Under the pieces are notes generated by a model, which was not told where the DNA came from, searched no databases, and saw nothing but the letters and a program-made list of their open reading frames with translations. This document shows positions 5,752-28,852 of a DNA stretch of 28,852 nucleotides, piece after piece. The stretch comes from Chiloscyllium plagiosum (taxonomy: Eukaryota): the NCBI RefSeq assembly GCF_004010195.1, contig NC_057751.1:18321325-18350176 (forward strand). The letters run 5' to 3'. Positions within the stretch are counted from its first letter, which is position 1, and every line of letters begins with the position of its first letter. The translations under genes were made by a program, and so were the position numbers.

Positions 5752-6693
5752 GAACACAGAACATAGAAAAATACAGTGCAGTACAAGCCCTTTGGTCCTC
5801 GATGTTGCGCCGATCCAATCCCACCTAACCTACACTCGCCCACTATCCTCCATATGCCTATCCAATGCCAGTTTAAATGCTCATAAAGAGGGTGAGTCCA
5901 CCACTGCTAATGGCAGGGCATTCCATGAACTCACGACTCGCTGAGTAAAGAATCTAAACCTAACATCTGTCCTATACATACCACCCCTTAATTTAAAGCT
6001 ATGCCCCCTCGTAATAGCGGACTCCATACGTGGAAAAAGGTTCTCATCTAAACTCCTAATCATCTTGTACACCTCTATCAATTCACCCCTAAACCTTTCT
6101 TTTCTCCAATGAAAACAGCCCCAAGTGCCTCAGCCTTTTCTCATACGATCTTCCTATCATACCAGGCAACATCCTGGTAAACCTCCTCTGCACCCGTTCC
6201 AGTGCCTGCACATCCTTCCTATAGTATGGCGACCAAAACTGCACACAATACTCCAGATGCGGCCGCACCAGAGTCTTATACAACTGCAACATGACCTCAG
6301 GGCTCCGGAACTCAATTCCTCTACCAATAAAAGCCAGTACGCCATATGCCTTCTTCACCGCACTATTTACCTGGGTGGCAACTTTCAAAGATTTGTGTAC
6401 ATGGACACCAAGATCTTTCTGCTCATCCACACTACCTGACACATCCTTCCTCACTGTCAACAACTCCACCGACTTTCGTATCATCCGCAAACTTGCTCAC
6501 CCAACCTTCTAGCCCCTCCTCCAGGTCATTTATAAAAATGACGAACAGCAATGGTCCCAAAACAGATCCTTGCGGAACACCGCTAGTAACTGCATTCCAA
6601 GATGAACCTTTATCATCAACTACTATCCTCTGTCTTCTTCCAGCCTGCCAATTCCTAATCCAAACCTCTAACTCACCCTCAATGCCATACCTC
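5752..6693 (-). mobile_element. Younger 5'-truncated CR1 LINE with internal deletion
   Basis: ORF 6089..6490 has KDLGVHVH, LVRPHLEYCVQFWSP and LERVQRRFTRMLPG; the KFADD motif near 6478-6493; tail ends in (TTCTATG)-like units at 5752-5770. Confidence 0.95.
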
Positions 6694-7101
6694 TATATGT
6701 CAACATTACTTATATTTTGAATTTGCTGTTTTTTGTTTATCAATTCTATCTGCATAGATTTTACCCTGCTCGAACTCAAATGTTTTACCAGGAATCCAGC
6801 TAAATTAGTAAATTTTGCCTGTTCTTTCTAAATACTGAATAATCTTAGGTGGTCTGTTCCCATCACTGATCAGCTTGCCACCATATCTCGATAATTCCAA
6901 CTGTCATATCTGTTTTTTTTTTTCTGAATTATTCGTTAAACTACTTTATTTCGAATGTCCCATGCGTTCAGGCGCAAATTCTTAAGGCGAGTTTTGCTTG
7001 TTTTTTTGTTTGTGTGTTCGATGTGGTGCCTCGATTCCTTTGCCTTTCGTTGCCCGATTCCTCCTTCTGATCTTCGTGTACGACTTGTCATTCTCTGACT
7101 C

Positions 7102-7918
7102 ATAGAACATATAACATAGAACATTTAACAATACAGCACAGAACAGGCCCTTTGGCCCACGATGTTGTCCTAGCTTAAGCACCTATCCATGTACCTATCC
7201 AGTTGGCACTTAAAGGTCACCAATGATTCTGACTCTGCTACTCCCACAGGCAGTGCATTCCATGCCCCCACCACTCTCTGAGTAAAGAACCTACCCCTGA
7301 CATCCCCCCATACCTTCCACCCTTCACCTTAAATTTATGTCCCCTTATAACACTCTGTTGTACCCGGGAAAAAGGTCTCTGACTGTCTACTCCATCTATT
7401 CCCCTGATCATCTTATAAACCTCTATCAAGTCACCCACATCCTTCGCCGTTCCAATGAGAAAAGGCCTAGCACTCTCAACCGATCCTCGTATGATCTATT
7501 CTCCATTCCAGGCAACATCCTGGTAAATCTCCTCTGCACCCTCTACAAAGCTTTCACATCCTTCCTAAAATGAGGCGACCAGAAATGCACACAGTACTCC
7601 AAATGTGGCCTTACCAAGGTCCTGTACAGCTGCAACATCACCTCACGACTCTTGAATTCCATCCCTCTGCTAATGAACGCTAATACAACATAGGCCTTCT
7701 TACAAGCTCTATCCACCTGAGTGGCAACTTTCAAAGAGCTATGAACATAGACCCCAAGATCCCTCTGCTCCTGCACCTTACTAAGAACCCTACAGTTAAC
7801 CCTGTATTCCACATTCTTATTTGTCCTTCCAAAATGGACAACCTCAGGGTTGAACTCCATCTGCCACTCCTCAGCCCAGCTCTGCATCAAATCTAAGTCC
7901 CTTTGCAGACGAATACAG
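7102..7918 (-). mobile_element. Younger 5'-truncated CR1 LINE
   Basis: ORF 7543..7974 has WAEEWQMEFN, RDLGVYVH and LVRPHLEYCVHFWSP; (CATAGAA)n tail at 7101-7122; flanked by CTGACTC at 7095-7101 and 7919-7925 (candidate TSD). Confidence 0.95.
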
Positions 7919-8399
7919 CTGACTCCTTGAAGTTGGTCCCCTTGCCGTTCCAATTTAGTTGAGACTCTCCCCAATTACTGGCAAACGCATTCCATCAGGC
8001 ATCAGTACTATCCTGCCATTTTGTAACGTGTAAAAAATCCCTATGATCAAGATTTCACACCTCGACTTTGGATACCCTTTGCTCATCCGATTTCTTTACC
8101 ACGTGATCAATCATATAACCTACTAATTCACCATTGACAAGCATGTCACATTGACAGTAATCCTGTTATCATTACCTTTATGACACTAGTTTTTTTTTAA
8201 ACTTGCTCCCTAAGTACCAATTTCCTAAACTTAAGACTCACAATTTTTGTTTTCACCTTTTTATGGTCCATTATGACAGGCTGCAGGTGAAGTGCTTTAG
8301 CGTGTGCTTTAACTTCGCTGTAATATCTCTGACATGAAAACCAGGGAGGTAACGTTCGAACTTAGATCTCGTATGTGACCACAGAAATGCCGATGCTTT

Positions 8400-10631: not shown

Positions 10632-11533
10632 TCAACGTTTAAGATATTTAACAATTTGAACAAACGGGTAGTTCATCATCTTCTTCAACTGCTCTCTGAA
10701 CTTTCGATGTATCACAACATAAATCACAGAGTTTGTGCAGCAACTGAGCATCTGAAGCATGTAGCCTAAATCCATTACAAAAATAGGCAGCGATTTTGAA
10801 TGATATCCCAAAAATACCATTCGTGAACTGATGGAAAACACCATTGATACTGACCATAACAATATGAAATTGCCTGAGACGAGAAACAACAAAATGATAG
10901 AATTCCTTCGATTATTTATCTCTGGGTCCCTGGCGCTTTTTCTATTGATCTGTTGGTGAAGTCGCCTGCGAACTTTGCTCGTCACGAAAATGTGTCTGAC
11001 CGTTAAAGCATTGAAAAATAGAATAAGAATAAAGGCAACTCCCGGAGTGAGAATGTAATGGAAGAACTCCATTGCCCCCCAGACGAGAGAAAACTTGAAA
11101 TGCATTTTCACCCAACAAAACCAGGGTCTGTTTTCCAGTCGATATCGACCATTATATACAAAATACCAAAACGTGTTTTTCAAAAAGCTCAATCCAGTCA
11201 CTGTGCCCAGAACCACTGCCGTTGTTTTCGTTTTGCAAAAGCTGGTTTTCAGACTTGAACAACAAATGGCAACAAATCGCTCGAAGGTGAAAGTGCTGGT
11301 GAACCAGACAGAACAGTCAGTGGCTGCGTAAAGTAGAATAGCATGGATATTACATACAGGGATGGCATGTAAAATGTGATATTGTTCCTTATAGACAAAT
11401 AGAATGTGTCGCAATATGAGGTCAACGATAATGACCAGGAGATCTGCCGTTGCCATGGCTATCAGGTAATGAGTAATACGTTTGCAGAGACCACTCTTTC
11501 CCCGGGACAGGATCGTGATTGTTGCGATGTTAG
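10632..11533 (-). CDS. gpr139-like: Exon 2 of the GPR139/GPR142-like class A GPCR (TM1 end to C-terminus); spliced product 402 aa
   Basis: Acceptor tgtttactttcctcacag|CT AAC ATC; G|CT restores Ala, giving GIP-A-NIATITILS (N1.50). Also present: LIAMATADLL (D2.50), PVCNIH (C3.25), FTFERFVAIC (E/DRY variant), ECL2 Cys in PWFCW, TM5 LTPGVAF, TM6 FILLW and TM7 CCTNSVIY followed by helix 8 FREQL. No internal stops; TGA at 10634-10632. Confidence 0.93.
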
Positions 11534-13161
11534 CTGTGAGGAAAGTAAACAATACACTTAGACATTCTGCTCAGAGCAAATGTAACATTTTTTTCTTAAC
11601 ACTGATAGAGGTGTGCAAGTGTTTTTACTGGAATGACGGCCATCTGCTGGAGCCATCTCGGTCTGCAAGATGACAACTTGAAATATAAGATGTCATAAAG
11701 ATTGCAGTCAGCTGAAACTTTTCAAATAGTTGGAACAAATTTTGTTGTAAGTTATACAAACCACGTGATTTAAGTTTTTTTGTGGAATTCAATATGCAGA
11801 TTCATCAGTGAGATCCGTGCGCCAGATTCGATTGTACGCGCGTTTAACTGGATCAGTGATCACCTTACCCTGATAATTATGGAGCACTCCTGGGTGATTG
11901 CCGACTATTGAAGTGCTGATTTCTTCCCCGTGACCCAATGTTGGACTAATGCGAAATTCACTGATTCTCACCTTATTGAAAGCAAAACGTATTAACGAAT
12001 CTTTATTGCGCCCTTATGTTAATTTTTTGAGTCAATTGTGTGATGGAAAAATTCCCACTTGCTTGTGTGTGCTCAACATAATATGGAAATTGAAAACATC
12101 CAGGACAATCGATCTACTCGACTGGAACCATCTAACAAAATACACATTTGTGCAGTCTATCATTGAGCCTTAGCAGCTCTAGTATATATAATCTACACGG
12201 TGCCCTGACGCAACTCACTTTAATAGTATGTTCTCAATCCGTCAATGTGATCCAACAAAAAGACAGGTCTTTAGATGTATCGGAACATGAACCAACACTG
12301 AATCGCCTATCTCAGCTCTTCATTACTATTTTTGCATACTTCTTGGTGTTTCCAATAAACATCATCTTCAGTTTGCAGGCTATTGTGTCAAAATGTAGAC
12401 GCTGGTTATCAGAGTGACTGTGAAGAATGAGAAGTGTGGTCACATTGAATTTGAAACATCGATTCTGTTTTTGCTCCAAGGTGGCTCAGTGGTGTGCACT
12501 GCTACCTCAGAGCACCACAAGTCCAGGTTCAATTCCAGCCTGAGCCGACTGTCTGTGTGGCATTTGCAAATATTCCCTGTGTTTGCGTGGTGTCAGGCAA
12601 GAATCTGGTGTCTGTCCAACGTGCAAGGATGTGCAGGGTACGTGCTTTAGCCATGTTAAATAGCCCCATATGGTCCAGGACTGTGTATACGATATAGATT
12701 CAATTTTTCAAACTTTAAGCTGTCTCTGCTTGATCTTAGGAATTATAAAAGCAGGTTTCATGAGCATGTACCAAAGTCTCGCACCCCAAGGCGTATAAGT
12801 GAACCGGTAGTATTTGATTGCAATAAAATCTTTATGGAGCACCCCTTTCATAGGCGTGCAGTGAAGTCACACTTAAGCAATGCCGTTTGTAACTAACAGC
12901 AAATACTGAGATATTCAGCGAACAAGTGCTTCAACTGCATGAATGTTAAATACAGAATCATTGCTTAGTCAGGAAGGACGCTAAGATGGTGAAGTTTACA
13001 GCGATCATAACGGGATACAAAGATTCTTCATTGGTGCAAAATTGCACAGAGTAAACTACAAGCACAGTTATGCATTGAGCAATGGTTTGTACAACGAGCA
13101 CGAACCGCTGCCAGGTCTGCACACTATAAATGCCACATTAATTGAAATTGGAAAGACTTAC
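11534..13161 (-). other. Phase-1 GT-AG intron (1628 nt) of the GPCR gene
   Basis: Minus-strand GTAAGT donor, pyrimidine-rich tract plus CAG acceptor and a possible branch site (TCTAAG) about 25-30 nt upstream of the AG; splicing preserves the frame. Confidence 0.88.
12480..12690 (+). mobile_element. HE1-type V-SINE, degenerate, inside the GPCR intron (antisense to the gene)
   Basis: ggtggctcagtgg (A box), ggttcaattcc (B box), gactgtctgtgtgg...ttccctgtgtttgcgtgg V-domain. Confidence 0.8.
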
Positions 13162-13468
13162 CAGGGATGCCAAAAATTGCGAGAATGGGGTAATAAATGA
13201 ATTGAATGATCTGAAGTGCCCATCGAATTCGATGATTTGGAAACATCTGATCAAAATTTGCAGAAAGATAACTTGTCGTCTCAAAGAAACCCCTCTCCAC
13301 TATATTATGATTCCAGTCTATTGTTCTGACATTCAGAGCCATTGCTGTAACATTGCAATCTACTGTCTTCACATATTCAACCGTTGTTATGCCATTCCAG
13401 TAATGTTCTCTTGGATTCCAATTCAATGTTGTAACAAAATAATCTACTGTCGCCATATTCCAATCCAT
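13162..13468 (-). CDS. gpr139-like: Exon 1 of a GPR139/GPR142-like class A GPCR (repeat-containing N-terminus and first half of TM1)
   Basis: ORF 13124..13468 reads MDWNMATVDYF...IIQFIYYPILAIFGIP, then a canonical donor CCTG|gtaagt (GT = 13161-13160). YYPILAIFGIP resembles the recalled GPR139 TM1 YYSLLLCLGLP. The 307-nt exon joins exon 2 in frame. Confidence 0.88.
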
Positions 13469-13512
13469 TGCTTCATCTTTCTAATCTATCATTCACGGAT
13501 TGTGATACCTAA

Positions 13513-13538
13513 TCTCTCACTCTCTCTGTCTCTCTCTG
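13513..13538. repeat. Imperfect (CT)n microsatellite just upstream of the GPCR start
   Basis: tctctcactctctctgtctctctctg. Confidence 0.8.
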
Positions 13539-14074
13539 TTGTGACAGAGCACTGTTCATGCCGAATGCGTTGCTCCCAGTGACACGATAGTGAACACATT
13601 GAAAGATGTGCCACATTAATAGATGTGTATCACGCTTCAGGAACTCAATTATGATTCATCAAGATTGATATTAGTGACAGTCACTAAACAAATAGATGTA
13701 AATAACTGCTTTCAATTGAATACCCTCTGAATCACAGTATATAGTATGGCTATCTAGGAAAGATATGAAGTTTGCTGAGGAAGCATTAAAATGTTTATAA
13801 CGATAGCAGTTATGAGATCGGAGTTTGGGAGACACTGGAACTTTACAAACGTACAGCTACGTTTCGAAACTGGAGAAAACTGATGCTGCAACTACTGGGC
13901 AGTCCCTATACAGTTCGCCATATTTTAAAATGCCGGAAAGGTGTCCCAGACATCAGGCAAGGAGTTACGTAATGGAAAGGAAGTAGTGACATAATGTTCA
14001 CAAAGCAAAAGGAGATATGTGGGCTTTCCCCCCGATGCAGATGCGTCTATCCTAAACCTAGCAAACCCGTCTTC

Positions 14075-14990
14075 CAACTCCGATCATGGCTTTCATTCAC
14101 CTAATATTACTCCTTGGCTGCAATAGTCATTAGAAATCTATCAGCTCAGTCTTGAACTTAATATACAATTCCACAGAGTGGAAACAGGCCGTTCGGTCCA
14201 CCATTTCCACAGCAACCCTCCGAAGAGTAACCTACACAGACCCATTCTTCAACATTATTTCTATATATTTATCTCTGACTAATGCACCTATCCTGACCCA
14301 TCCCTGAACACTACGGGCAATTTAGCACGGCCAATTCAACTAACCTGCACATCTTTTGACTGTGGGAGGAAACCGGACCACCAGGAGGAATCCCACGCAA
14401 AAACAATGAGAACGTGTAACCTGCTCGCAGACAGCCGCTCGAGGCTGGAATCGGTTCCCTGGTGCTGTGAGGCAGCAGTGCTAACCACTGAGCCACCGTG
14501 ACACCACAGCGATTAAACTTTCACAGTATGTTCGCTGCAGAATTCCAATGATTCAATTATCCTCTGTGGGAATAAGTTACTCCTCTTTACAAATCTAAAT
14601 TCTTCAGACAGCTGGGAATTCAACACTTCTACATCGGTTGTCAATCCATTGAAGGTCTTTGTAAGATTCTAAAGCGTTTGCCTCTCACTCCTCTAAACTC
14701 CAAACAATCCAGTTTTTTTTAATCCAACTGTCTAAAAATTCAAGTAATGTATCTGGTGAAATTCAGCTGCACTCATTCGACATTAAGTATATGGTTAGTT
14801 TGGCCAGTAGAACAGAGTGGGCACAAAATACACAAAATGCGAAATCTGACATCATTGAACAAAACATCATTGTTTCTGTCGTCAAATTCTCATGCAATAA
14901 AGGTGAGCAAAACGCTCCTCTAACAAGCTATCTACTCTACTTGCATACTGTTTTTCAGTGACTCATGATGAATAAGGCCACCCTGGTTTC
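14075..14990 (-). mobile_element. Old CR1 3' fragment hosting the HE1 SINE
   Basis: gaaatctatcagctcagtcttgaa before the SINE and gaattccaatgattca...cctctgtggg after it continue a CR1 3' region. Confidence 0.5.
14163..14505 (-). mobile_element. HE1-type V-SINE, near full length
   Basis: Minus strand cacggtggctcagtggttagcactgctgcctcacagcaccaggga head, V-domain (tgcgtggg...tccggtttcctcccacagtc) and a CR1-like tail (ggcctgtttccactctgtg). Confidence 0.92.
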
Positions 14991-16049
14991 TTTGGCCACC
15001 AACACTTTCCAACCTTTACGTTTGATCCAAGTTGAGCATCTAAAAATGAGAGATTACTTGATAGATCACATGTTTATGTTTTGTTGGTTAATATGATGTT
15101 TATCTGCTGAAAAATATTCAGTCAGGCAGCACGTTAGTTGCACCGACAGGACAGAAGTTGTTACATAAAGTAAAGGATTGAAGAAAAGACAACAAATACC
15201 ATAAACATAACAGGTATTTGCAAATGTATCAAATCATACAGTAAACTAAAGGCTAAACTGCATTTATGATACTGCATATCACAGATTCTCAGGCGTAACG
15301 AAATTACACTCCATGTTTTTTACTGACCCTGTGTAGTTTTGTTGTAGCTGTTAGTTGCGAAAGCTGTCCAATAAATCAGTTCTGAGTTTGATGACATGAT
15401 ACTGTAAGAAGTATGAAAGCTTCAACTTCTCTGTTCTCTACCAACAGATTTTGAACAAAATTCTCTGAGGTTGGGAGTTCCACAAATTAAATCCATCTGC
15501 TGAGATAACAGGTTACACGATGTCCAGCCACAACCACAGCTGCCACAACACACACCCTTTGCACGAACCCAAGACCTTCCTCTGGGAAAGACTGAATTCA
15601 CTTTTCGATTCAACTCTGTTATTCTCTGAAAACAAATCTGGTAGATTTACTGCGTTTTGAGTGGGCGGGGTGAGGTGCTTCTAAAGAATGGCCCAATACC
15701 CAACCTGGGAGCTTTGGTTGTTTTGTTGAGAAGGTCACAAACTGACTTGAGAAGGGAATGGGGAAGGAGGTAGATATAAAGACTGAAGCAAGTTTCAGCC
15801 AGACATAGAAGGAATGCCAATGCAGTCACATCAGCTGGAGAATGATATGGCACGTGACAAGTATAGAAAAATGAATTGTTCCTTATTTCATGCAAGGAAT
15901 TTGACATGTAAAGCAGATGATCATAGATTATTGATCAGCATGTGGGAATATGCTATTATTGTGATTATTCAGATGTGGTTAATGAAATGTGGCTATAGAA
16001 ACTTAAAATTTTAGGGTAAATAATTTTCAGCTGTGGGAGGGGTAAAGAC

Positions 16050-16745
16050 AATATAAAAAAGTTGGGCGCATTGCATTCTTGAAAAAGGAACCCATCGCTG
16101 CAATAATGAGGGACGAGAGTCGAAAAGGATCCTCAAATGAGGCAATCTTGGTAGATCTTAGAAATAAAAGAAAGGACTGATTTATTTGCTGTGGCCTTTC
16201 TAAAGAACTCAGAACATTAAAAGGGAGAGAGAGGAGCTAATTACAGAACAATATAATAGCAGTTGGATTATAATTGTACAATTGTCGGCAATTTAAAATT
16301 TGCTGACATTAACTGTGCTTCCCTGAGTGTGAAATTATTACACGGGGTTAGTTTTCTAAAGTGCATTCAGGAGAGTTTTTAATTCCAAGAAGTGGATAAT
16401 CCTATTACAGATGGGGCAGCAGTAGATCTAATGCAACTGAATGAACCACTCAAGTGGACAAGCGTTTTTGGGGATAGTGATGATAATTCTGAAAGCTTCA
16501 TTGTCATTGCAGAAGCAGATAAGCAGAGTGCAGAAGCTAAGTATTTAAATCGGGAGAATGCCAATTTCAATATCATGAGACCGGATCTGGAAAACATTGA
16601 CAGCGAACAGCTACTTCCTGATACATCGACAGTTGAAAATGTAGGATAGTGAGAAGTAAGCAACAGTGTAATCCTCTGAGAATGAAGTAAGTACAAGGAC
16701 AGTGTTACCTCGGAATGCTGGACAGCGGGGATATGGATTGATAAG
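16050..16745 (+). mobile_element. Degenerate CR1 ORF2 endonuclease-domain fragment
   Basis: ORF 16392..16649 NPITDGAAVDL...NEP...FGDSDDNS...LNRENANF resembles CR1 PTRxGAxLDL...GDSDHN...LNWxKANF. Confidence 0.75.
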
Positions 16746-16752
16746 AATAAAA

Positions 16753-17246
16753 ATTTGGAATACTGCATCCAGTTCTGGTCGCCGTATTATAGGAAAGATG
16801 TGGATGCTTTGGAGAGAGTTCAGAGGAGGTTTACCAGGATGCTGCCTGAAGAGAGGTTGACTGAGCTCGGACGTTTTTGATTGGAGAAAAGGAGGAGGAG
16901 ACGGGACCTAATTGAGGTATACAAGATAATGAGAGGCATAGATAGAGTCGATAGCCAGAGACTACTTCCCTGAACAGAAATGGCTTACACGAGGGGGCAT
17001 AGTTTTAAGCTGGTTGGAGGGAAGTATAGAGGGGATGTCAGAGGCGGGTTCTTTACACAGAGAGTTGTGAGAGCATGGAATACGTTGCCAGCAGCAGTTG
17101 TGGAAGCAAGGTCACTGGGGACATTTAAGAGACTGCTGGACATGCATATGGTCACAGAAATTTGAGAGTGCCTACATGAGGATCAATGGTCGGCACAACA
17201 TTGTGGGCTGAAGGGCCTGTTCTATGCTGTACTGTTCTATGTTCTA
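16753..17246 (+). mobile_element. 5'-truncated CR1 LINE 3' end
   Basis: LEYCIQFWSPYYRKDVDALERVQRRFTRMLP; TRGHSFKL...FFTQRVVRAWN; tail ends ctgttctatgttcta. Confidence 0.95.
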
Positions 17247-17373
17247 AAACTATGCAAACAAGTATCAAATACAGCACAACCAAATAAAAAGAGAAAATGC
17301 CCTTCAGTCGTGTTAAGAAATGCATGGCGATTGCTAAAAAAAAAATTAGAAGGACATAGCAGAGGCAAAAATG

Positions 17374-19725
17374 TAGAACATATAACATAGAATATTACAA
17401 TGCAGTGCAGGCTCTTCGGCCATCGATATTGCGCCGACCCGTGGAATCAACCTGAAGCACATCGAAACAATATTATTCCATTCTTGTCCATATGCCTATG
17501 CAATGACCATTTAAATACCCTTAAAATTGGTGAGTCTACTGCTGTTGCAGGCATTGCATTCCATTCCCCTACTACTCTCTGAGTAAAGGAACTACCTCTG
17601 GCATCTGTCCTATGTCGATCACCTCTCAATTTAAATCTATGTCCTCTCATGTTAGCCATCGCCATCCGAGGAAAATGATTCTCATTGTCCAGCTTATCTA
17701 ACCCTCTCATTATCATATACGTCTCAATTAATTCCTCTCTCAACGTTCTTCTCTCTAACGAAACAAGCCTCAGGTCCCTCACCCTTCCTCGTAAGGCCTT
17801 CCCTCCATACCAAGCAAGATCGTAGTACATATCTGAACATTTTCCAATGCTTCAACATCCTTCTTAGAATGTGGCGACCAGAACTGTACACAGCACCCCA
17901 AACGTGGCCACACTAGACTTTTCTACAGCTGCAGCATGATCTCATGGTTCTGAAAGTCAATCACTCCACCAATAAAAGGTAACACTCCATATGCTTTCTT
18001 AACAAACCTATCAACCTAGGGGCTGGCGCTGTCTTCACTGGAGCATTGGAGGCAGAAGACTGACTGTACAGATGCTTATAAAATCATGAGGGGCATGGAT
18101 AGGATAAGTAGGCAAAGTCTCTTCCCTGCGTTGGCGGATTCCAGAACCAGCAGGCATAAGTTTCGGGTGAGATGAGAAAGATATAAAATAGACTGAAGGG
18201 AAAACCTTTTCACACTGAACGTGGTATGCGTATGGAATAAACAGCCAGAGGAAGTGGCGGAGGCTACTATAATTGCAACATTTAAACGGCAATGAAAGGG
18301 TATATGAATAGGAAGTGTTTGGAGGGATAAGGGCCAGGTGCCGGCAGGTGGAACTAGATTGGGTTGGGATATTTGGTCGGCATGAGCGAGTTAGACAGAA
18401 GGGTCTATCTCCGTGCTGTACATTTCTATTACTCTCTGACATTACTATCCCCGTTTTTGCATTGAACTCCATTTGTCTCTTCTCAAGCCAGATCTGCAGT
18501 ATATCTATGTCTGTCTGTAAGCTACAACATCCTTCGTCACTATCCGCAACTCTGCAGACCTGAGTGTCATCCGCAAATTTACTCACCCGTCTTTGAATGC
18601 TGTCATTCAGTTCATTTATAAAAATGACAAACAACAGTGGACACAAAACAGATCTTTGTGGCAATCCAATCGTAACTGAACTTCCACATCAACCACCACC
18701 CTTTGTCTTCTTTCAGCTAGCCAATTTCTGATACAACCCGATAAATCACATTTAACACCATGCCTCCATATTTTGTGCTGTAGCCTACCGAGGGGAGCAT
18801 TATCAAACACTTTACTGGAATCTATATTCACCTGTTTGGTAACCATCTCAAATGGCTCAATTATGTTTGTGAGGCATGAACCTCCCAACACAAATCCGTG
18901 CTGAATTCCCCTAATCAATGTATTCCTTTCCAGATGATTATAAATCATTTTTCTTCGAACCATTTCCAACACTTTTGTCACAACCGAAGTAAGGCTCACT
19001 GGTCTATCATTTCCAAGATTGCCTCTACACCCCTTCTTGAACAAGGAGACAACCATTGTTACTCCCAGTCTCCTGGCATTATTTCTGTAGACAATAACGA
19101 CATAACGAACAAAGACAAAGTCTCTGCAATCTCCTTTCTGGTTTCCGAGAGAAGCCTGGGTTGAATCACATCTGGGCCAAGGGGACTTATCTATTTTCAC
19201 ACTTTCCAGAATGGCTAAAATCCTGCTCCTTTTGGACCTCAATTCCATCTAGTCTAACCGCCCGTATCTTACTGTTCTCCTCGACTACATTGTATTTTGA
19301 CTAGTGTGAAAACCGAAGAAAAGTATTAATTTAGCACTTCCACTTCCTTCTCTGAATCCACACACACATTTCCACCACGATGGTTGATTGGCCATAAGCT
19401 TACTCCAGTCATTATTTTATTCCTGATATATCTATAGAAAACCTTAGGGTTTTCCTTGATCCTATACGCTAATAAATTCTCCTCACCCCTCCTGGCTCTT
19501 CTTAGCTCCCTCTTTCGGTCTTGCCGGGATACCTTGTGTCTCTCAAGCGCCCTAACTGAGCCATCACATCTCATTATAATGCAAGGCTCTTTTTTTTCCT
19601 TTTGACAAGGACCTTCTTTCATAATCACGACTCCTGCGCTCAACAGCTTCCTCCTTGCCTTACTGGTAGATACTTATCAAGGAACCGCAGTAGCTTGTCC
19701 TTGAATAAGCTCCACATTTCAACAT
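17374..19725 (-). mobile_element. Long degenerate CR1 LINE (ORF2 RT domain to 3' tail), interrupted at about 18020-18437
   Basis: DKSP, RPVSLTSVV, QHGFV, SKVFD, IRNWL, SVLCPLLF and [10 protein letters not shown] motifs in minus ORFs 18616..19248 and 18035..18664; tail at 17374-17440. Confidence 0.93.
18020..18437 (+). mobile_element. CR1 3' fragment inserted in opposite orientation into the CR1 above
   Basis: ttataaaatcatgaggggcatggatagg...gcataagtttcgggtgaga...tctccgtgctgtacatttctattactct tail. Confidence 0.88.
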
Positions 19726-20496
19726 AGCTTTGGTTCGTGCGATTAGAGCAATCTTAAAGGCACGTTATAACTTTATTTACTGTTATGAAGATAAAGCGTG
19801 AAAGTGTGTTCTTCTTAGACACCAAAGGATAAATCTGTGTTTGGAGACAAAGGACTCGGATGAGGTTTTTAAATGATAATTTGTTATCTTTATTCACAAA
19901 GGCGAAGGAATGAATCAGAGTGTTTCCTTTTGAATCCTGACGTTCTCCAGCATGTTAAAAGTAGTCAGGAGGAGGCATTGGATCCTTTAGTGAGCAGTAA
20001 GTTGCATAAATGTCAAGGGATTTATGAGATGTATCACAGGCTGCCATGGGAAGTAAGGGAAGCAATGGTTGGGACATTGACGGGGACATTTAATACATTT
20101 CTGGCCAGAGGTGAAATGCCAGATGACTTCATAATGGGAAGCATAGATAGGACACGTACTTACAGAGTAGTTTGTTTGACATTAATCACAGGAAACTTTA
20201 AAAAATAAACGTCTGAAGGATAGGACTAATTGATGGCTGGGAAGGTCCCGGTGGATCCGGGATATTCAACATCGATTTATTATAGGGAGATCCTGTCTCA
20301 CTAATACAATCGTTCTTTTTTTGTTTGAAAAAGTGACTGTGTGTTGATGAATTTGGTAAAATTGAAATGGTTATAATGGGCTTCAGTAAAGCATTTGAAA
20401 AGATTCCAACATGGAAGTCTGGTTCAAAAAGAAATATCCATAGGATCCAAAGTAAGTCAGCAATCTGGATCCAAAATCGGCATGCAAAATGGAAGG

Positions 20497-20704
20497 AGAA
20501 AGTGAGGGTTGCAGATCGTGGAGATCAAAGCTGTAAATGTGTTGCTAGAAAAGCGCAGCAGGTCAGGCAGCATCCAAGGAACAGGAGAATAGACGTTTCG
20601 GGCACAAGCCTGAAATTCCTGAAGAAGGGCTTGTGCCCGAAACGTCGATTCTCCTGTTCCTTGGATTCTGCCTGACCTGCTGCGCTTTTCCAGCAAAACA
20701 TTTT
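20497..20704. mobile_element. Fold-back Penelope-like terminal-repeat insertion with a perfect 16-bp TSD
   Basis: CATGCAAAATGGAAGG at 20481-20496 and 20705-20720; inverted arms 20535-20610 and 20628-20703 (72/76 identical). Confidence 0.9.
20615..20650 (+). ncRNA. Minimal type I hammerhead ribozyme motif (PLE-associated)
   Basis: CTGAAGA-A-GGGC-TTGT-GCCC-GAAA-CGTC (20619-20646): intact core, 4-bp stem II, palindromic ACGT in place of stem III and a GUC cleavage triplet; stem I is weak. Confidence 0.7.
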
Positions 20705-20844
20705 CATGCAAAATGGAAGGCGTTCGGTAAGGGTTTTTTCCATGACTGGACGCCTCTAACCAGACGTGTACTACGTTTTGTGTTAGTTGTTCAGCAATGA
20801 CATGGTGAAGGGTGTCATTCTGAGTTGTATAACGCCATGAGTCT

Positions 20845-21387
20845 CGATTAGAGTGGTGCTGGACAAGCACAATAGTTCAGGCAGCATCTGAGGAACAGGA
20901 AAATCGACGTTTCGGTCAAAAGCCCTTCATCAGGAATAGTGTAGGGAGCCTCCGGAATGGATAAATAAATGGAAGGGGGTGTGGCTGGTGATAAGGTATT
21001 CAAGAGTACAATTGGTAGATGGAGGTGGGGATGAAGGTGATAGTTCGGAGAGGAGGGTGGAGTGGATAGGTGGGAAGGAAGATTGGCAGGTAGGATATGT
21101 CATGAGGACGGTGCTGAGCTGGAAGGTCGGAACTGGGGTAAGGGGAAGGGCAATGAGGAAACTGGGGAAGTCCACGTTGACGCCCTGGGGTTGAAGAGTT
21201 TTGAGGCGGAAGATGAATTGTTCTTCCTAATGGCGTGGGGTGGTGAGGGAGTGGCGGTGGAGGAGGCCCAAGACCTGCATGTCCTCAGTAGAGTGGGAGG
21301 GGGAGGTGAAATGTTTGGGAACAGGGTGGTGGGTTTGATTGGTGTGGGTGTCCCAGAGATGTTCCCGAAAGTGCTCTGCAAGAAGAA
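20845..21387 (-). mobile_element. 5'-truncated Penelope-like element (GIY-YIG C-terminus plus terminal repeat)
   Basis: LAEHFREHLWDTHTNQTHHPVPKHFTSPSHSTEDMQVLGL, continuing to FIFRLKTLQPQGVNVDF; the terminal repeat is related to the 20497 element. Confidence 0.9.
20902..20937 (-). ncRNA. Minimal hammerhead ribozyme motif in the PLE terminal repeat
   Basis: Minus strand CTGATGA-A-GGGC-TTTT-GACC-GAAA-CGTC (20933-20906); one mismatch in stem II. Confidence 0.62.
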
Positions 21388-22307
21388 CCATGAATCCAGC
21401 ATAGGCAGTAGACAAGTCACTGCAATTTTCTGATCGTTTATCAAGTTTGATATCAAAGGATGAACAGTCTGTCGGGACAGAATTTTCAATCTTGTTGAGA
21501 TGTTTGGAGCAGCGTGATGGTACCTAACTGTGCTATTCAAGAAGGTTTCCTCAATTTCCTCCTCTCACTCTGGTCCATCTTCCATCTGCTTGGAGAGGAC
21601 TTTTCTCCGAAAAAAAACGATACAATCATGACCTCTCCTGCCCTAAATTCACTCTCTTCTCCGTGTCTGTTCAGATCATCCAGCGGGGAATTAAACTAGG
21701 CCCAGTGCAGTTCCTCACGTCATGAGTTCCACATCGTGTGGAATTCAACCCATGAGTTCTTGGCCAATGTACAGCTATCGTAGCATGAAGTTTTTTTCGC
21801 CAACTTCCTCTCCTCCAACGTATAAATTTCATCTTCGAATTAAAATAGCTCTTGCAATCTTTTTCTGGTGCCTCCCAATCAGAATATTCCTACCTGAGCA
21901 GTTATTGATGCATCATATTTCTAGGATTGTGCTATTTTCTCTATGCTTGTCAATTGACTGAACGTTATTTGCCAATGGCCATAGGATGTAAAGCTCTGAC
22001 GTCATTTGAAAATTCCCCACATTTATCTGAGGGTTTGTTAACCATTCTTTCAAAGCTTATATTCAAAAACAAAAGAAAACACATTTATTAAAAGGTGCAT
22101 TTGCGCCAGATGATTTGTTGATGATAGTTCCAGATTTCCTCCATCTTCATTTTCGATCATTACTCACATTTTTTTGTCATATGCCAAAATCTTGGAAAGT
22201 CAAATACTGCTGTAGCAGCTCTTCAATTGCAGCTCATGCGATTGCATAAATATGAGGTTAATTCATTTCTGAAGTATCATAAATTTACTCGACATGTTGA
22301 AAATCCA

Positions 22308-24000
22308 AAATAGAAACAAAAACTTGGCCATTGAGCATATTAAGCCTGCATCACACTTCAAGTGCTAATCGAGCAAACACAGTATCCCATTCATGCTTTC
22401 TCTTCGTATCCCTGGATCCTTTTTGCCACAATGGCCACATCCAGATCCATCTTAAATATATCTAATAAATTGGGCCCAACAGCTTCCTGTGGGAGAGAAT
22501 TCCACAGGTTCGCATCTCTCTGAGTGAAGACACTCATTCTCATCCCAGTCTTGACTGGCTTACACCTTATTTTTAGAATATGGCCGCTAGTTCTGAACTT
22601 GCCCAGCTTCAAAAACAGCATTCACGTTTCTAGCATATCCAGTCCCACCAAGATATTAAATGTTTTTATGATTTCTTCCCCACCAACATTTTTCTAAAAT
22701 CCTGCGATTACAGGTCCACTCGATCCAAACTTTCTTTACATGTCAGTGCAGCCATCCTGGAAATTAATCTGGTGAACCGTTGCTTGACTTCATTAACAAC
22801 GAGAATATCCTCCCTCAGACTGGGAGACCAAAACCATCCACAATGCGCAAGGTGTGGCCTCAACTAGCCCCTGTATAACAGCAGCAAGACATCCTTACTC
22901 CGAAGCTCACATCGTCTCGCTATTAATACCAGGTTTCCTCACCACCATTTGCACCTACACGCAAACCGTCAGCGACTGTTACAAACGTAACAACCAACTT
23001 TCGTTGCACCTCACCGTTTCCTAAACTGCCACCATTCAGGTAATAATCGGTTCTCCTTTTTCTGAAACGAAAGGGGAAAATATCACAATTATCGACATAA
23101 TACTGCACTTGCCCACATAGCTGGTTTGTCCAAGTAACACTGCATCCTCTTCGCATCCTCCTCAAAGTATACACTGCCATCCAGCTTCCTGTGACTTGAA
23201 AATTTGGACACATTGCATTGAATTCCATCATCGAAATCATTAATGCATGATGTACACAGCTGAGGTCCCAGCACTGAACCCTGCAGACCCTGCTTGTCGC
23301 TGCCGGCCAGTCTGAAAAGGACTAGTTTATTCCAGTTCTCAGCTTCCTGTCTGCCAGCTACTTCTCTATCCATCTGATTACCCTACGTCCGAAACATGAG
23401 CTATAATTATCTTATGAAGCTCTTTTGTGGAACCTTGTGAAAAGCCTGTTGGAACTATCAGTGTATAGAATTTACTTATTCACCTTTGTCCACTCTTCTA
23501 ATGACACACTAAAATAATTGCAGTAAGATTGTCAAGCGTGATTTCCATTTAGTCTATAATGACGAGGTCAGCTTCTGTCACCACTTTCTAAATCCTCAGT
23601 TATTACATAATTGACTCCAGTATTTCCCCTTCATTGATGTCAGGATAAGCAGGCTATAATTCTCTATTTTCACTCTCCACCCCACTCATTGTAAAAAGTG
23701 GGTTTACATCAGCTACCCATCATTCGATTGAAATGCTTTCAGAATACAAATGCAGGAAAATAATCACCAATATGTGCACTATTTCTAACTCGAATTCCTT
23801 AAGTACATTAGTATGCAGAGCATTAGGCCATGGGTATTATCGGGTTTTAATCTCATTAGTTGCCGCAGTTACGTTTCCTGATGAAGAGGGATTTTATTTA
23901 GTTCCTAATTCATGCTTAACACTCCCTCCCCAAGCATTTCCTGGAATTTATTTGCATCTTCCACAGTGAAAACAAATACAAAATATTTGTTCAACTGACC
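22308..24000 (-). mobile_element. Degenerate CR1 LINE (RT domain to tail)
   Basis: QGSVLGPQL...INDFDDGIQCNVSKF in ORF 23089..23373; RTSGHILKI...FTQRDANLWNSLP in ORF 22391..22621. Confidence 0.88.
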
Positions 24001-24324: not shown

Positions 24325-25445
24325 CAGAGGAACCTCGATTATACGAAGGAGATGGGAGTGCACTACTTCATTCAGAGAACTGATTATTTCGTTCATTGAT
24401 TCAATGTCTCTTCTCTCGGACTTGGAGATTCCTGATAAGCCCGCTGTCCGTTCAGGAGACGAATAGGCAGCACACCGTGCGTGGGCCCAAGCCGCTCCGT
24501 CCGTCCCAAACCCTGTTCAACCCTGTCCCAACCCCATTCAACCCCACCCCGCAACCCCAACCCCCAAACACAGCTCCATCTGCCCCCAACCCGCCTGCCC
24601 GCCAACCCCGTCCAAAACCTCGAACATACCGCAACCCCGTCGAACACCACCCGCTCCCACACCTAACCCCGTCCAACACTGCACGATCCGTCCACTACAT
24701 GTCCCAACCCTTTCAAATAAAGACACCTTGCCCTCCACTATTCTCCACACCCGTCCAACACCACCCACCAACTCCCAACACCGTCCAATACCGCCCTGCT
24801 GACTGCCCCAATCCCGAATGCTATTTAACACTGATGCCCTACCCGACCCCACTATCCAACTTCGTCCAAAACCGCCAACCTCTCCCCGCATCCAACCCTG
24901 ACCAACACCACCTCCCCTCCACCAGCCCATCTCTGTCCGCACCAGGCCCCTCTCTGGGCCAGCCAGACTGGACACCAGTAACAAGACTGCTGCTGCTTTT
25001 GCTGCCATTTAGGGGTGAGTCTCCCATTAGCGTGCACACACACAAACATACACACACACAGCCAAACACACGATGTTTTACTGCATCTTTCGTCAAGGTT
25101 CCACGTTTGTCCGGCACAGGACAATGTAGGAAAAAATATCTGAGGAAGGTGGTTTAAGGCTACACTCCTGTGTCGAATTCCAAGTAAAGTGTGAGGGGTG
25201 AGAGAGACGAGGGGGAAGTTAGCCATTTGGAGACTAATCTGTGCTCCCATCGATGTCCAGGAGTGTTCACGGCAGCGAGTGTTCATGGTAAGCCGAGTTC
25301 AATTTTAATCATTATAAATAGAAGACACGATCAATATTGCAAACACGTCATTGATGTATTGTTTTTTTTTATCGGGGACCTCAAGGTCTCCTTCGGATAA
25401 TCCAATATTTAGATAAATGATATTTGGATAATCAAGGTTCCTGTG
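24325..25445. mobile_element. Non-autonomous Tc1/mariner-superfamily (pogo/Tigger-like) DNA transposon, 1121 bp
   Basis: TA at 24323-24324 and 25446-25447; TIRs CAGAGGAACCTCGATTATACGAA (24325-24347) and the reverse complement of 25423-25445, CACAGGAACCTTGATTATCCAAA (19/23); subterminal TTCGGATAAT-like repeats; no transposase seen. Confidence 0.85.
24495..24935 (+). repeat. C-rich degenerate minisatellite (core AACCCCGTCCAACACCACCC)
   Basis: Recurring aaccccgtccaa / acccgtccaacaccaccc / aacaccgtccaa / aaccctgaccaacaccacc units about 25-40 nt apart. Confidence 0.8.
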
Positions 25446-27859: not shown

Positions 27860-28454
27860 AAGGGATACCATTTTCCTGAGGGTGAGGGGTGGGATGAATT
27901 TGCTAATGCTCTTCGGTAGGGTTTACAATAATTCAGCGGGGTGATGGGAACCTAAATTGTAGTTCATATGTCCAGGAGGTTGAGAGCAGTGAGGTCAGAA
28001 ATAAGGTTTCACGTTCACAAGTGCGCACTGGCAAGCAGGAAGGTGACTAGAAGTGTGTCTACTTCAAATCCAGGAGCATCTGGAATAAGATGGGTGAAAT
28101 TGCAACACGGACTTGTACCTGGGATTTCGATGTTGTCGCCATTTTGATACATTGATATCGCAGGGACAGGAATTCTTCTTGCAGGTTCCGGGATTTAGAT
28201 GTTACAGAAAGAACAGGGAAGCTCGTAAAAAGAAGGCGAGGTGTGCCAGTGTTAGTCAAGGACGATAATACGGTTTCAAAATAATGTTTGAGGACTCGTC
28301 TGCTGAGGTCGTATGGGCTGAGGTTTGAAACAGGAAAGGGGAGGCCACTCTGTTGAGAGTTTTGACTCGGCTTCCGAATAGTTCACGGAGATGTAGAGAA
28401 AAGGATTGCAACAACAATTCTCGGTAGGAATGAGTGTAATAGGGTATTTGTTAT
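27860..28454 (+). mobile_element. CR1 ORF1 end / ORF2 endonuclease N-terminus, degenerate
   Basis: KCVYFKSRSIWNKMGEIATRTCTWDFDVVAI resembles YFNARSIRNK...WDFDVVAISETW; GGVxVLV and EVVWAEV motifs follow. Confidence 0.88.
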
Positions 28455-28581
28455 AGAAGAATACAGCGCAGTATAGGCCCTTTGGCCCTTGATGTTGCGC
28501 CGATCCAAGCCCACCTAACCTACACTAGCCCACTATCCTCCATATGCCTATCCAATGCCCGCTTAAATGCCCATAAAGAGG
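28455..28581 (-). mobile_element. Short CR1 3' tail, same family as 5752-5890
   Basis: gatgttgcgccgatccaagcccacctaacctacactagcccactatcctccatatgcctatccaatgcc is nearly identical to about 5800-5870. Confidence 0.92.
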
Positions 28582-28852
28582 CGTGTTGTTGTGGTCTGGC
28601 GATGGAGGAGTCCAAAGACCTGCATATCCTTGGTGGAATGGTAGGGAGAGTTGAAGTGTTGAGCCACAGGGTGGTTGGGTTGGTTGGTCCGGGTGTCCCA
28701 GAAATGTTCTCTGAAACGTTCCGCAAGTAGGCGGCCTGTCTCCCCAATATAGAGGAGGCCACATCGGGTGCAGAGGATGCAATAGATGATGTGTGTGGAG
28801 GTGCAGGTGAATCTGTGGCGGATATGGAAGTTTCCTGTGGGGCCTTGGAGGG
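28580..28852 (-). mobile_element. Penelope-like element, GIY-YIG endonuclease domain (continues beyond the window)
   Basis: Hand translation of the minus strand from 28850: LQGPTGNFHIRHRFTCTSTHIIYCILCTRCGLLYIGETGRLLAERFREHFWDTRTNQPNHPVAQHFNSPYHSTKDMQVFGLL, with IIY...YIG and no stops. Confidence 0.93.

Follow-up and report, generated by a model that had tools for sequence, protein, structure and literature searches.

GPR139 and GPR142 are class A receptors, regarded as orphans or as receptors for aromatic amino acids, and human GPR139 has a short, plain N-terminus. Extracellular segments built by coding VNTRs are known as glyco-stalks from the mucin-type arrays, the decamers of PSGL-1, the 13-aa VNTR of GPIb-alpha and the neck repeats of DC-SIGNR. 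GPR139 is described, in a 2025 review that does not contain the word 'shark', as highly conserved across vertebrates (PMC12208981), and its Trp/Phe pocket is formed by F3.33, H5.43, W6.48, R6.51 and N7.38 (PMC5430874). Coelacanth, salamanders and ray-finned fishes have cryptic orphan receptors that resemble GPR139/142; Rinne et al. (2019, PMC6504862), in whose main text the words 'shark' and 'cartilaginous' are absent, gave those of coelacanth and fishes the name GPR210A/B. Two papers describe the repertoires of GPCRs and olfactory receptors in cartilaginous fishes as poor (PMC8455134, PMC10116579), the former of which, on the whale shark genome, speaks of a paucity of GPCRs in these fishes (PMC8455134).

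Here we describe a copy-number-variable N-terminal repeat that is a property of an undescribed shark receptor subclade at the level of the family, and whose kind, a coding VNTR stalk, is already known. Our starting point was a 28,852-nt stretch of the Chiloscyllium plagiosum genome (NC_057751.1; hereafter the window). No literature on this receptor family or its repeat, including GPR139 in elasmobranchs, was found by a search that did not extend to subscription journals and shark genome supplements. Like the coding VNTR glyco-stalks, the shark array is a tandem coding minisatellite, in which copy number sets the length of the extracellular segment and the units are homogenised within a gene. 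Unlike them, it is placed on a rhodopsin-class GPCR that lacks a signal peptide, its unit carries one N-linked sequon in place of O-linked Ser/Thr/Pro tracts and repeats the start codon, and it varies among paralogs, with no allelic variation in two sequencing runs.

Gene structure and start codon

The window contains an intact two-exon receptor gene with a CDS of 1209 nt (402 aa), the parts of which are, in the order of transcription:

13489-13469, minus strand: degenerate ninth heptad in register, in which an in-frame stop takes the place of Trp, outside the ORF (from the reading frame)
13301..13468, minus strand: repeat array, residues 1-56, eight heptads, taken as four degraded 14-aa (42-bp) units (from periodicity and ungapped paralog alignment)
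13346..13354, minus strand: sole N-x-S/T sequon left in the N-terminus of the window protein, N39 in unit 6
13162..13300, minus strand: non-repetitive rest of exon 1, comprising a juxtamembrane segment (predicted helix) and most of TM1
11534..13161, minus strand: predicted phase-1 GT-AG intron of 1628 bp (from the splice sites; the frame stays open across the joint, which agrees with homologs)
10632..11533, minus strand: exon 2, from the end of TM1 through TM7, with the stop at 10632

Exon 1 is predicted to extend from the ATG at 13468 on the minus strand, which is also the start of the array, to a GT donor after 13162, and no hydrophobic signal peptide was detected in it. Exon 2 is recognized as a 7tm_1 domain by Pfam (E 1.1e-15; 58.2 bits vs a cut-off of 30.5), and the receptor displays an ERF motif, which resembles the D/ERY of TM3, as well as W6.48; by domain and motifs the predicted product belongs to the class A (rhodopsin-like) GPCRs. 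A tblastn search with eight homologs recovered no second receptor copy within the window. The N-terminus is indeed long, as the initial annotation held, its length ahead of the conserved YYP of TM1 being 91 residues and not about 85.

Translation beginning downstream of the repeat, or frameshifts within it, had been raised as possible objections. The closest relatives start at the same Met as the window gene, and neither of two DNA runs has a frameshift in the repeat: run X1 yielded a contig over 13199-13664 with 2 differences and no gap, and run X4 a contig over 13178-13463 with 0 differences. Since both contigs are gapless, these two samples, one of which may be the source of the window, show no allelic difference in the number of units. 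The differences in X1 are at 13464, in the second codon, and at 13476, in the 5' leader, where the change abolishes an out-of-frame upstream ATG eight bases ahead of the start. The Met at 13246 was also considered as the start and rejected, given that the closest relatives have no Met there. Among RNA data, run X5 gave 7 partial reads at 90-95% identity with ~2% of the run covered, and run X6 gave 0 reads with ~6% covered. Same-species paralogs about 90% identical to exon 2 (10861-11287; X4, contig record 13) and to the 3' part of exon 1 (13179-13337; X1, records 6 and 8) are present in the DNA contigs, and the summed contig depth over exon 2, which is not a copy number, is very high in both X1 and X4. 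TATA-like words occur on the minus strand at 13743 and 13799, some 275 and 330 bases ahead of the ATG.

The remainder of the window harbors broken LINE-type reverse-transcriptase fragments (60-1120, 5881-6720, 7238-7974, 17447-19248 and 22391-23382), which we take to be CR1-like; RVT_1 matches below the cut-off were obtained at 18619-19248 (E 8e-6) and 332-862 (E 0.06). The segments at 20930-21564 and 28443-28730 are presumably Penelope-like retroelement ends, with no Pfam hit for the two frames tested in the former. The intron contains a high-copy SINE-like interspersed repeat (12480-12603), at which the summed depth is very high and loose ends are numerous. An 88-aa open frame at 16383-16649 on the plus strand is acidic and protein-like in composition but without a match in Pfam. 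Short tandem repeats rich in C, with periods of 6-22, lie at 24503-24800, no 26-bp satellite is evident upstream of the gene (13500-22000; highest identity at lag 26, 0.40), and Rfam gave 0 matches in the window.

The repeat array in exon 1

The eight heptads reported in the initial annotation were found at 13468-13301 on the minus strand exactly as written, with W-N at heptad positions 3-4 in four of the eight (units 1, 3, 4 and 8) and Asn at position 4 in six (units 1, 3, 4, 6, 7 and 8). DNA identity within the array at lags of 21, 42 and 63 bases is 0.46, 0.48 and 0.50, and these lags exceed all 5000 of 5000 codon shuffles; none of the 5000 (0/5000) matches the mean lag identity of the array even when the best period is left free for each shuffle. 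In a scan of the whole window at lags 10-60, the top signal was lag 42 at the exon 1 array (0.51). The array is absent from the output of Tandem Repeats Finder run on the window at score 30, because its units share on average just 10.7 of 21 bases.

The 7-aa unit originally proposed had to be revised, as in relatives the repeating unit is 14 aa long and composed of two alternating heptads. The last four units of the sawshark protein P0285 can be aligned with window exon 1 without a single gap, 42/105 residues (40%) being identical. With a heptad PSSM, the A/B alternation is not cleanly assigned in the window, unit 1 scoring as B and units 3-5 below 0 for both, so that the reading as 4 x 14 rests on periodicity and the ungapped alignment with P0285. 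By these two lines the array reads as four worn 14-residue (42-bp) units, each of two alternating heptads. The degenerate upstream heptad is directly preceded by an in-frame ATG (whole part 13469..13492, minus strand) and would represent a dead repeat unit.

The unit in other shark receptors

The repeat is no novelty of this gene: the 14-aa unit is shared by five shark orders, where it is confined to one subclade and present in 0 to ~9 copies, which bears out the proposed copy-number differences among paralogs. In homologs the A heptad typically has Met, Gly/Asp, Arg/Gln, Asn, Leu, Arg, Thr, and the B heptad Ile, Asp, Trp, Asn, Val, Thr, Thr; successive Asp-Trp-Asn anchors are 14 residues apart in 89/128 spacings and 7 apart in 24/128. 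For unit counts, 24 of the 120 best homologs were dropped for want of a recognisable TM1 anchor, and among the 96 kept a loose pattern detects one to five W-N-type heptads in 65 and none in 31. When the P0031 repeat region was used as query, 56 hits were obtained among 8000 scored candidates, all from sharks and 55 of them with 7tm_1. The longest arrays are those of P0285 (8 units), P0284 (~9) and the catshark protein P0216 (~9 of a 13-residue variant), and one degenerate unit is apparently present, by eye, in the stingray protein P0190. The notion that a coding minisatellite builds the N-terminus is thus sustained as a prediction by the tandem 14-aa units of the homologs, whose N-termini are automatic gene models biased to open frames.

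Similarity of units within a gene is 0.90-0.96 in four of five test genes and 0.71 in the fifth, which has two units, vs 0.69-0.83 between genes; that they are more alike within than between genes indicates repeated, separate amplification. In a FastTree tree of the 157 of 216 7TM cores that were usable, with no true GPR139 or GPR142 among them, every unit-bearing protein falls in one subclade (support 0.82), which also includes short-tailed members. Outside it, no unit was found in any of the 15 proteins with a recognisable exon 1 (0/15), many others having no usable exon 1 model. The window protein is sister to 16 Stegostoma proteins (support 0.98), listed together with one 57.5-Mb contig; most of the full-length Stegostoma sisters share its start Met, and they number seven heptads vs eight in the window. 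By its position in the tree and its exon 1, the window gene appears to be a member of the repeat-bearing chondrichthyan GPR139-related subclade.

P0216 (Scyliorhinus canicula) has its approximately nine 13-residue units on a truncated gene model, and in P0284 (Stegostoma) the long array is joined to a broken 7TM; the longest arrays may therefore favour damaged copies. Further, many database gene models, such as P0027, P0054, P0091, P0115, P0133 and P0307, have N-termini that resemble LINE reverse-transcriptase fragments where the true exon 1 should be, and the P0147 model is fused to an integrin-like one. Annotation of the family is unreliable at the 5' end.

Relationship to GPR139 and its relatives

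Homologs were recovered through exon 2 only, for exon 1 alone found 0 among 50 candidates in longer proteins. The exon 2 search yielded 1002 clusters (90% identity) at E<=1e-10 among 2287 candidates, and the best 120 of these 1002 are all from sharks: 53 Heterodontus, 40 Heptranchias, 18 Stegostoma, 7 Pristiophorus, 1 Carcharodon and 1 Scyliorhinus. An exhaustive search of the 50% representatives gave 104 at E<=1e-30. The 30 members that were looked up include sharks, two batoids and Callorhinchus, with distant ones beyond Chondrichthyes. The distant homologs, at 24-30% identity, are from salamanders, coelacanth, bichirs, teleosts and a snail, the nearest bony-vertebrate hits in this range being from Pleurodeles, Latimeria, Odontesthes, Engraulis and Erpetoichthys.

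Most homologs carry the NCBI name 'probable G-protein coupled receptor 139', and the initial annotation likewise took the receptor for GPR139. Human GPR139 is the best match of the window receptor among solved structures, though with E 1.2e-6 and 31.5 bits only, and 7vug is the second Foldseek hit for a paralog model, at 23% identity. At the five positions of the GPR139 pocket (F3.33, H5.43, W6.48, R6.51, N7.38) the window protein has Tyr, Glu, Trp, Ser and Tyr. Across 93 sequences, W6.48 is kept in 93/93 and position 3.33 is Tyr or Phe in 87/93, whereas H5.43 is replaced by Glu in 88/93, R6.51 mostly by Phe, Leu or Ser, with Arg absent from the five commonest residues, and N7.38 by Phe, Tyr or Leu in 93/93. 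The weak match together with three of five pocket residues changed speaks against GPR139 orthology, and the identification as GPR139 has to be given up. The shark family is related to GPR139/GPR142 by a remote match only, consists of hundreds of paralogs as opposed to one conserved gene, and in one subclade bears a repeat N-tail that GPR139 does not have.

The bony-vertebrate relatives have a similar TM1 start, short N-termini, few genes per genome and no repeat. They are far from human GPR139, as expected of the GPR210 group; the salamander protein P0233, for instance, also matches it weakly (E 2.6e-13). In the FastTree tree, salamander, coelacanth and teleost proteins are placed at the base of the chondrichthyan radiation or adjoining it, with mixed support. 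GPR210A/B may be the bony-fish side of the shark family.

Sequons, sequence conservation and the ligand question

The repeat consensus carries an N-glycosylation sequon, as had been suggested, 94/146 W-N sites in homologs being sequons. The number of sequons tracks that of units (rho 0.91, from sequences that share history and are hence not independent). Of these sequons the window copy retains one, N39 in unit 6, vs two to four in Stegostoma, where two of them overlap; the first sequon keeps its Asn and Thr without exception in the 14 Stegostoma paralogs. In these 14, conservation is 0.90 for the repeat, 0.91 for the receptor body, 0.80 for the juxtamembrane linker and 0.72 for ECL2, and entropy across the whole subclade is maximal in ECL2 and ECL3.

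These values bear on the proposal of a tethered ligand, or of a variable module for ligand binding, in which Trp-bearing units of the array engage the receptor's own aromatic-amino-acid pocket or capture diverse ligands. Trp does recur regularly in the B heptad, and the nearest solved relative by sequence, GPR139, responds to Trp and Phe; against this, only F3.33 and W6.48 of the five GPR139 pocket residues are kept, the units differ in number and hardly in sequence while variability peaks in ECL2 and ECL3, and no conserved protease site was noticed. We regard this proposal as very improbable. A hypervariable repeat is at odds with its conservation being higher than that of ECL2, and given that the repeat changes in number and not in sequence, ligand diversity is more likely to reside in the loops and the pocket. 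The suggested connection between a Trp-rich repeat and the sensing of aromatic amino acids likewise fails, being baseless in a receptor that is not GPR139 and does not keep its pocket. Most likely, the repeat does not bind ligand but serves as a flexible tail that carries sugars.

The non-repetitive segment ahead of TM1 (window 13240-13310) is predicted with fair confidence to be a helix, and varies more than the repeat (0.80). This segment is a candidate for a lid over the ligand pocket.

Predicted structure of the array

In AlphaFold models the array of an eight-unit paralog has pLDDT values of 44-58 and is drawn as long helices, with the 7TM mostly above 90, and residues 1-59 of window exon 1 form a low-confidence hairpin with pLDDT mostly under 50; low values on a repeat can mean poor alignment instead of disorder. 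The beta-rich repeat that had been considered is not borne out, no confident beta-rich fold being predicted. A beta-solenoid was rejected, as the models contain no confident strands. The repeat matches no Pfam family at cut-off, and an Atlas search with the array gave no usable hit. Taken over the family, there is one sequon per unit, variation in copy number and no stable fold; in the window the sequon is kept in 1/4 units.

The helices invite comparison with a parallel coiled-coil stalk of variable length, in which heptad positions 5 and 1 would form the a and d core, and which would bring receptors into clusters or hold a surface lined with glycans and Trp away from the membrane. Among 353 heptad counts, with overlapping windows included, a hydrophobic residue stands at position 1 in 82% and at position 5 in 87%, such residues are almost absent at positions 2, 4, 6 and 7, and 118/128 distances between anchors are divisible by 7, although the latter would follow from the duplication of units by itself. 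The homogeneous P0284 array furthermore shows weak, sub-cut-off Pfam hits to DUF1664 (E 8e-6), FlaC_arch, DUF7491, V-SNARE, CENP-F and NPV_P10, mostly families of the coiled-coil type. Conversely, Gly stands at position 2 in 80/118 A heptads and Pro at position 6 in 15/136 B heptads, the catshark P0216 has amplified a 13-residue unit, albeit on a truncated gene model, position 5 is taken by Pro, Gly and His in three of the eight heptads of the window copy, and the confidence of the helices is low. We thus consider a coiled coil unlikely, and we know of no class A GPCR with an oligomerisation module of this kind. It is equally doubtful that a glycosylated coiled-coil stalk, whose length would be set per paralog and perhaps by the Met used, controls the clustering or reach of the receptor.

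Decay of the window copy

Mismatches of the window array to the heptad consensus are distributed over the three codon positions as 16/18/17, and the chance of the array staying stop-free is 0.17 in simulation; these figures therefore provide no support for selection on it. The 7TM of the window protein departs from the family at 18/136 near-invariant columns, the third highest of 93 (median 4), and pN/pS against a same-species paralog contig is 0.59, which is indistinguishable from 1 (p 0.12; 31/40 differences listed). The window gene looks, from its substitutions, to be under relaxed constraint with four old decayed units, and is a worn example of modest interest on its own.

The array could also be a DNA minisatellite that surrounds the start codon, is close to neutral and has no function of its own, with the window copy decaying; it would be tolerated because its units are multiples of three in length, or would lie mostly in a 5' UTR with translation from the last Met. 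The absence of codon-position bias and of significant stop avoidance in the window array, the dead unit directly upstream of the start, the lack of units in 31/96 homologs and the drift of the window 7TM are all in keeping with such a minisatellite. This contrasts with the Asn, Trp and Thr pattern being kept across five shark orders, and with the Stegostoma repeat being conserved like the receptor body; moreover, four units 30% off the consensus that remain in gapless register with a distant paralog should be rare for neutral DNA. On balance, neutrality strikes us as a minority possibility, and somewhat improbable.

A proposed glycosylated tail of variable length

In light of the above, we propose with moderate confidence that the array is a flexible, VNTR-built and N-glycosylated N-tail, whose length follows copy number. 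An ancestral member of the subclade would have had a 14-codon leader that began with the start codon and contained one N-x-T sequon. This 42-bp segment would then have been tandemly duplicated many times, independently in different lineages, by slippage or unequal crossing-over, with single heptads occasionally gained or lost. The product would be an extracellular N-tail without a signal peptide, in which length and the number of N-glycans scale with the copies. Signal-anchor GPCRs need an unfolded N-tail, and this one would most likely aid folding, surface delivery and shielding, and would serve as a spacer from the membrane, with the choice of ligand left to the 7TM pocket, ECL2 and the juxtamembrane helix. 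As each unit begins with Met, nested shorter tails are possible from one gene, and as 31/96 close homologs lack the unit, the tail would be dispensable. For the array we thus infer translation, glycosylation, disorder, a role in trafficking or shielding, and nested starts. A mere glycan spacer would require neither the retained Trp nor the regularity with which hydrophobic residues fill positions 1 and 5 of the heptad.

Implications

An orphan family of 1002 clusters contrasts with the supposedly small GPCR repertoire of sharks, and its automatic name, GPR139, is misleading; the pharmacology of GPR139 should not be carried over to the genes of the shark family. The repeat constitutes a recognisable and repeatedly re-amplified N-terminal module of one branch of this family, and, with 0 to ~9 units on closely similar 7TM cores, offers a natural dose series for the effects of N-tail length and glycans. 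Were the coiled-coil reading to be true, cartilaginous fishes may possess in this family a large set of chemosensory or immune receptors that has so far escaped notice.
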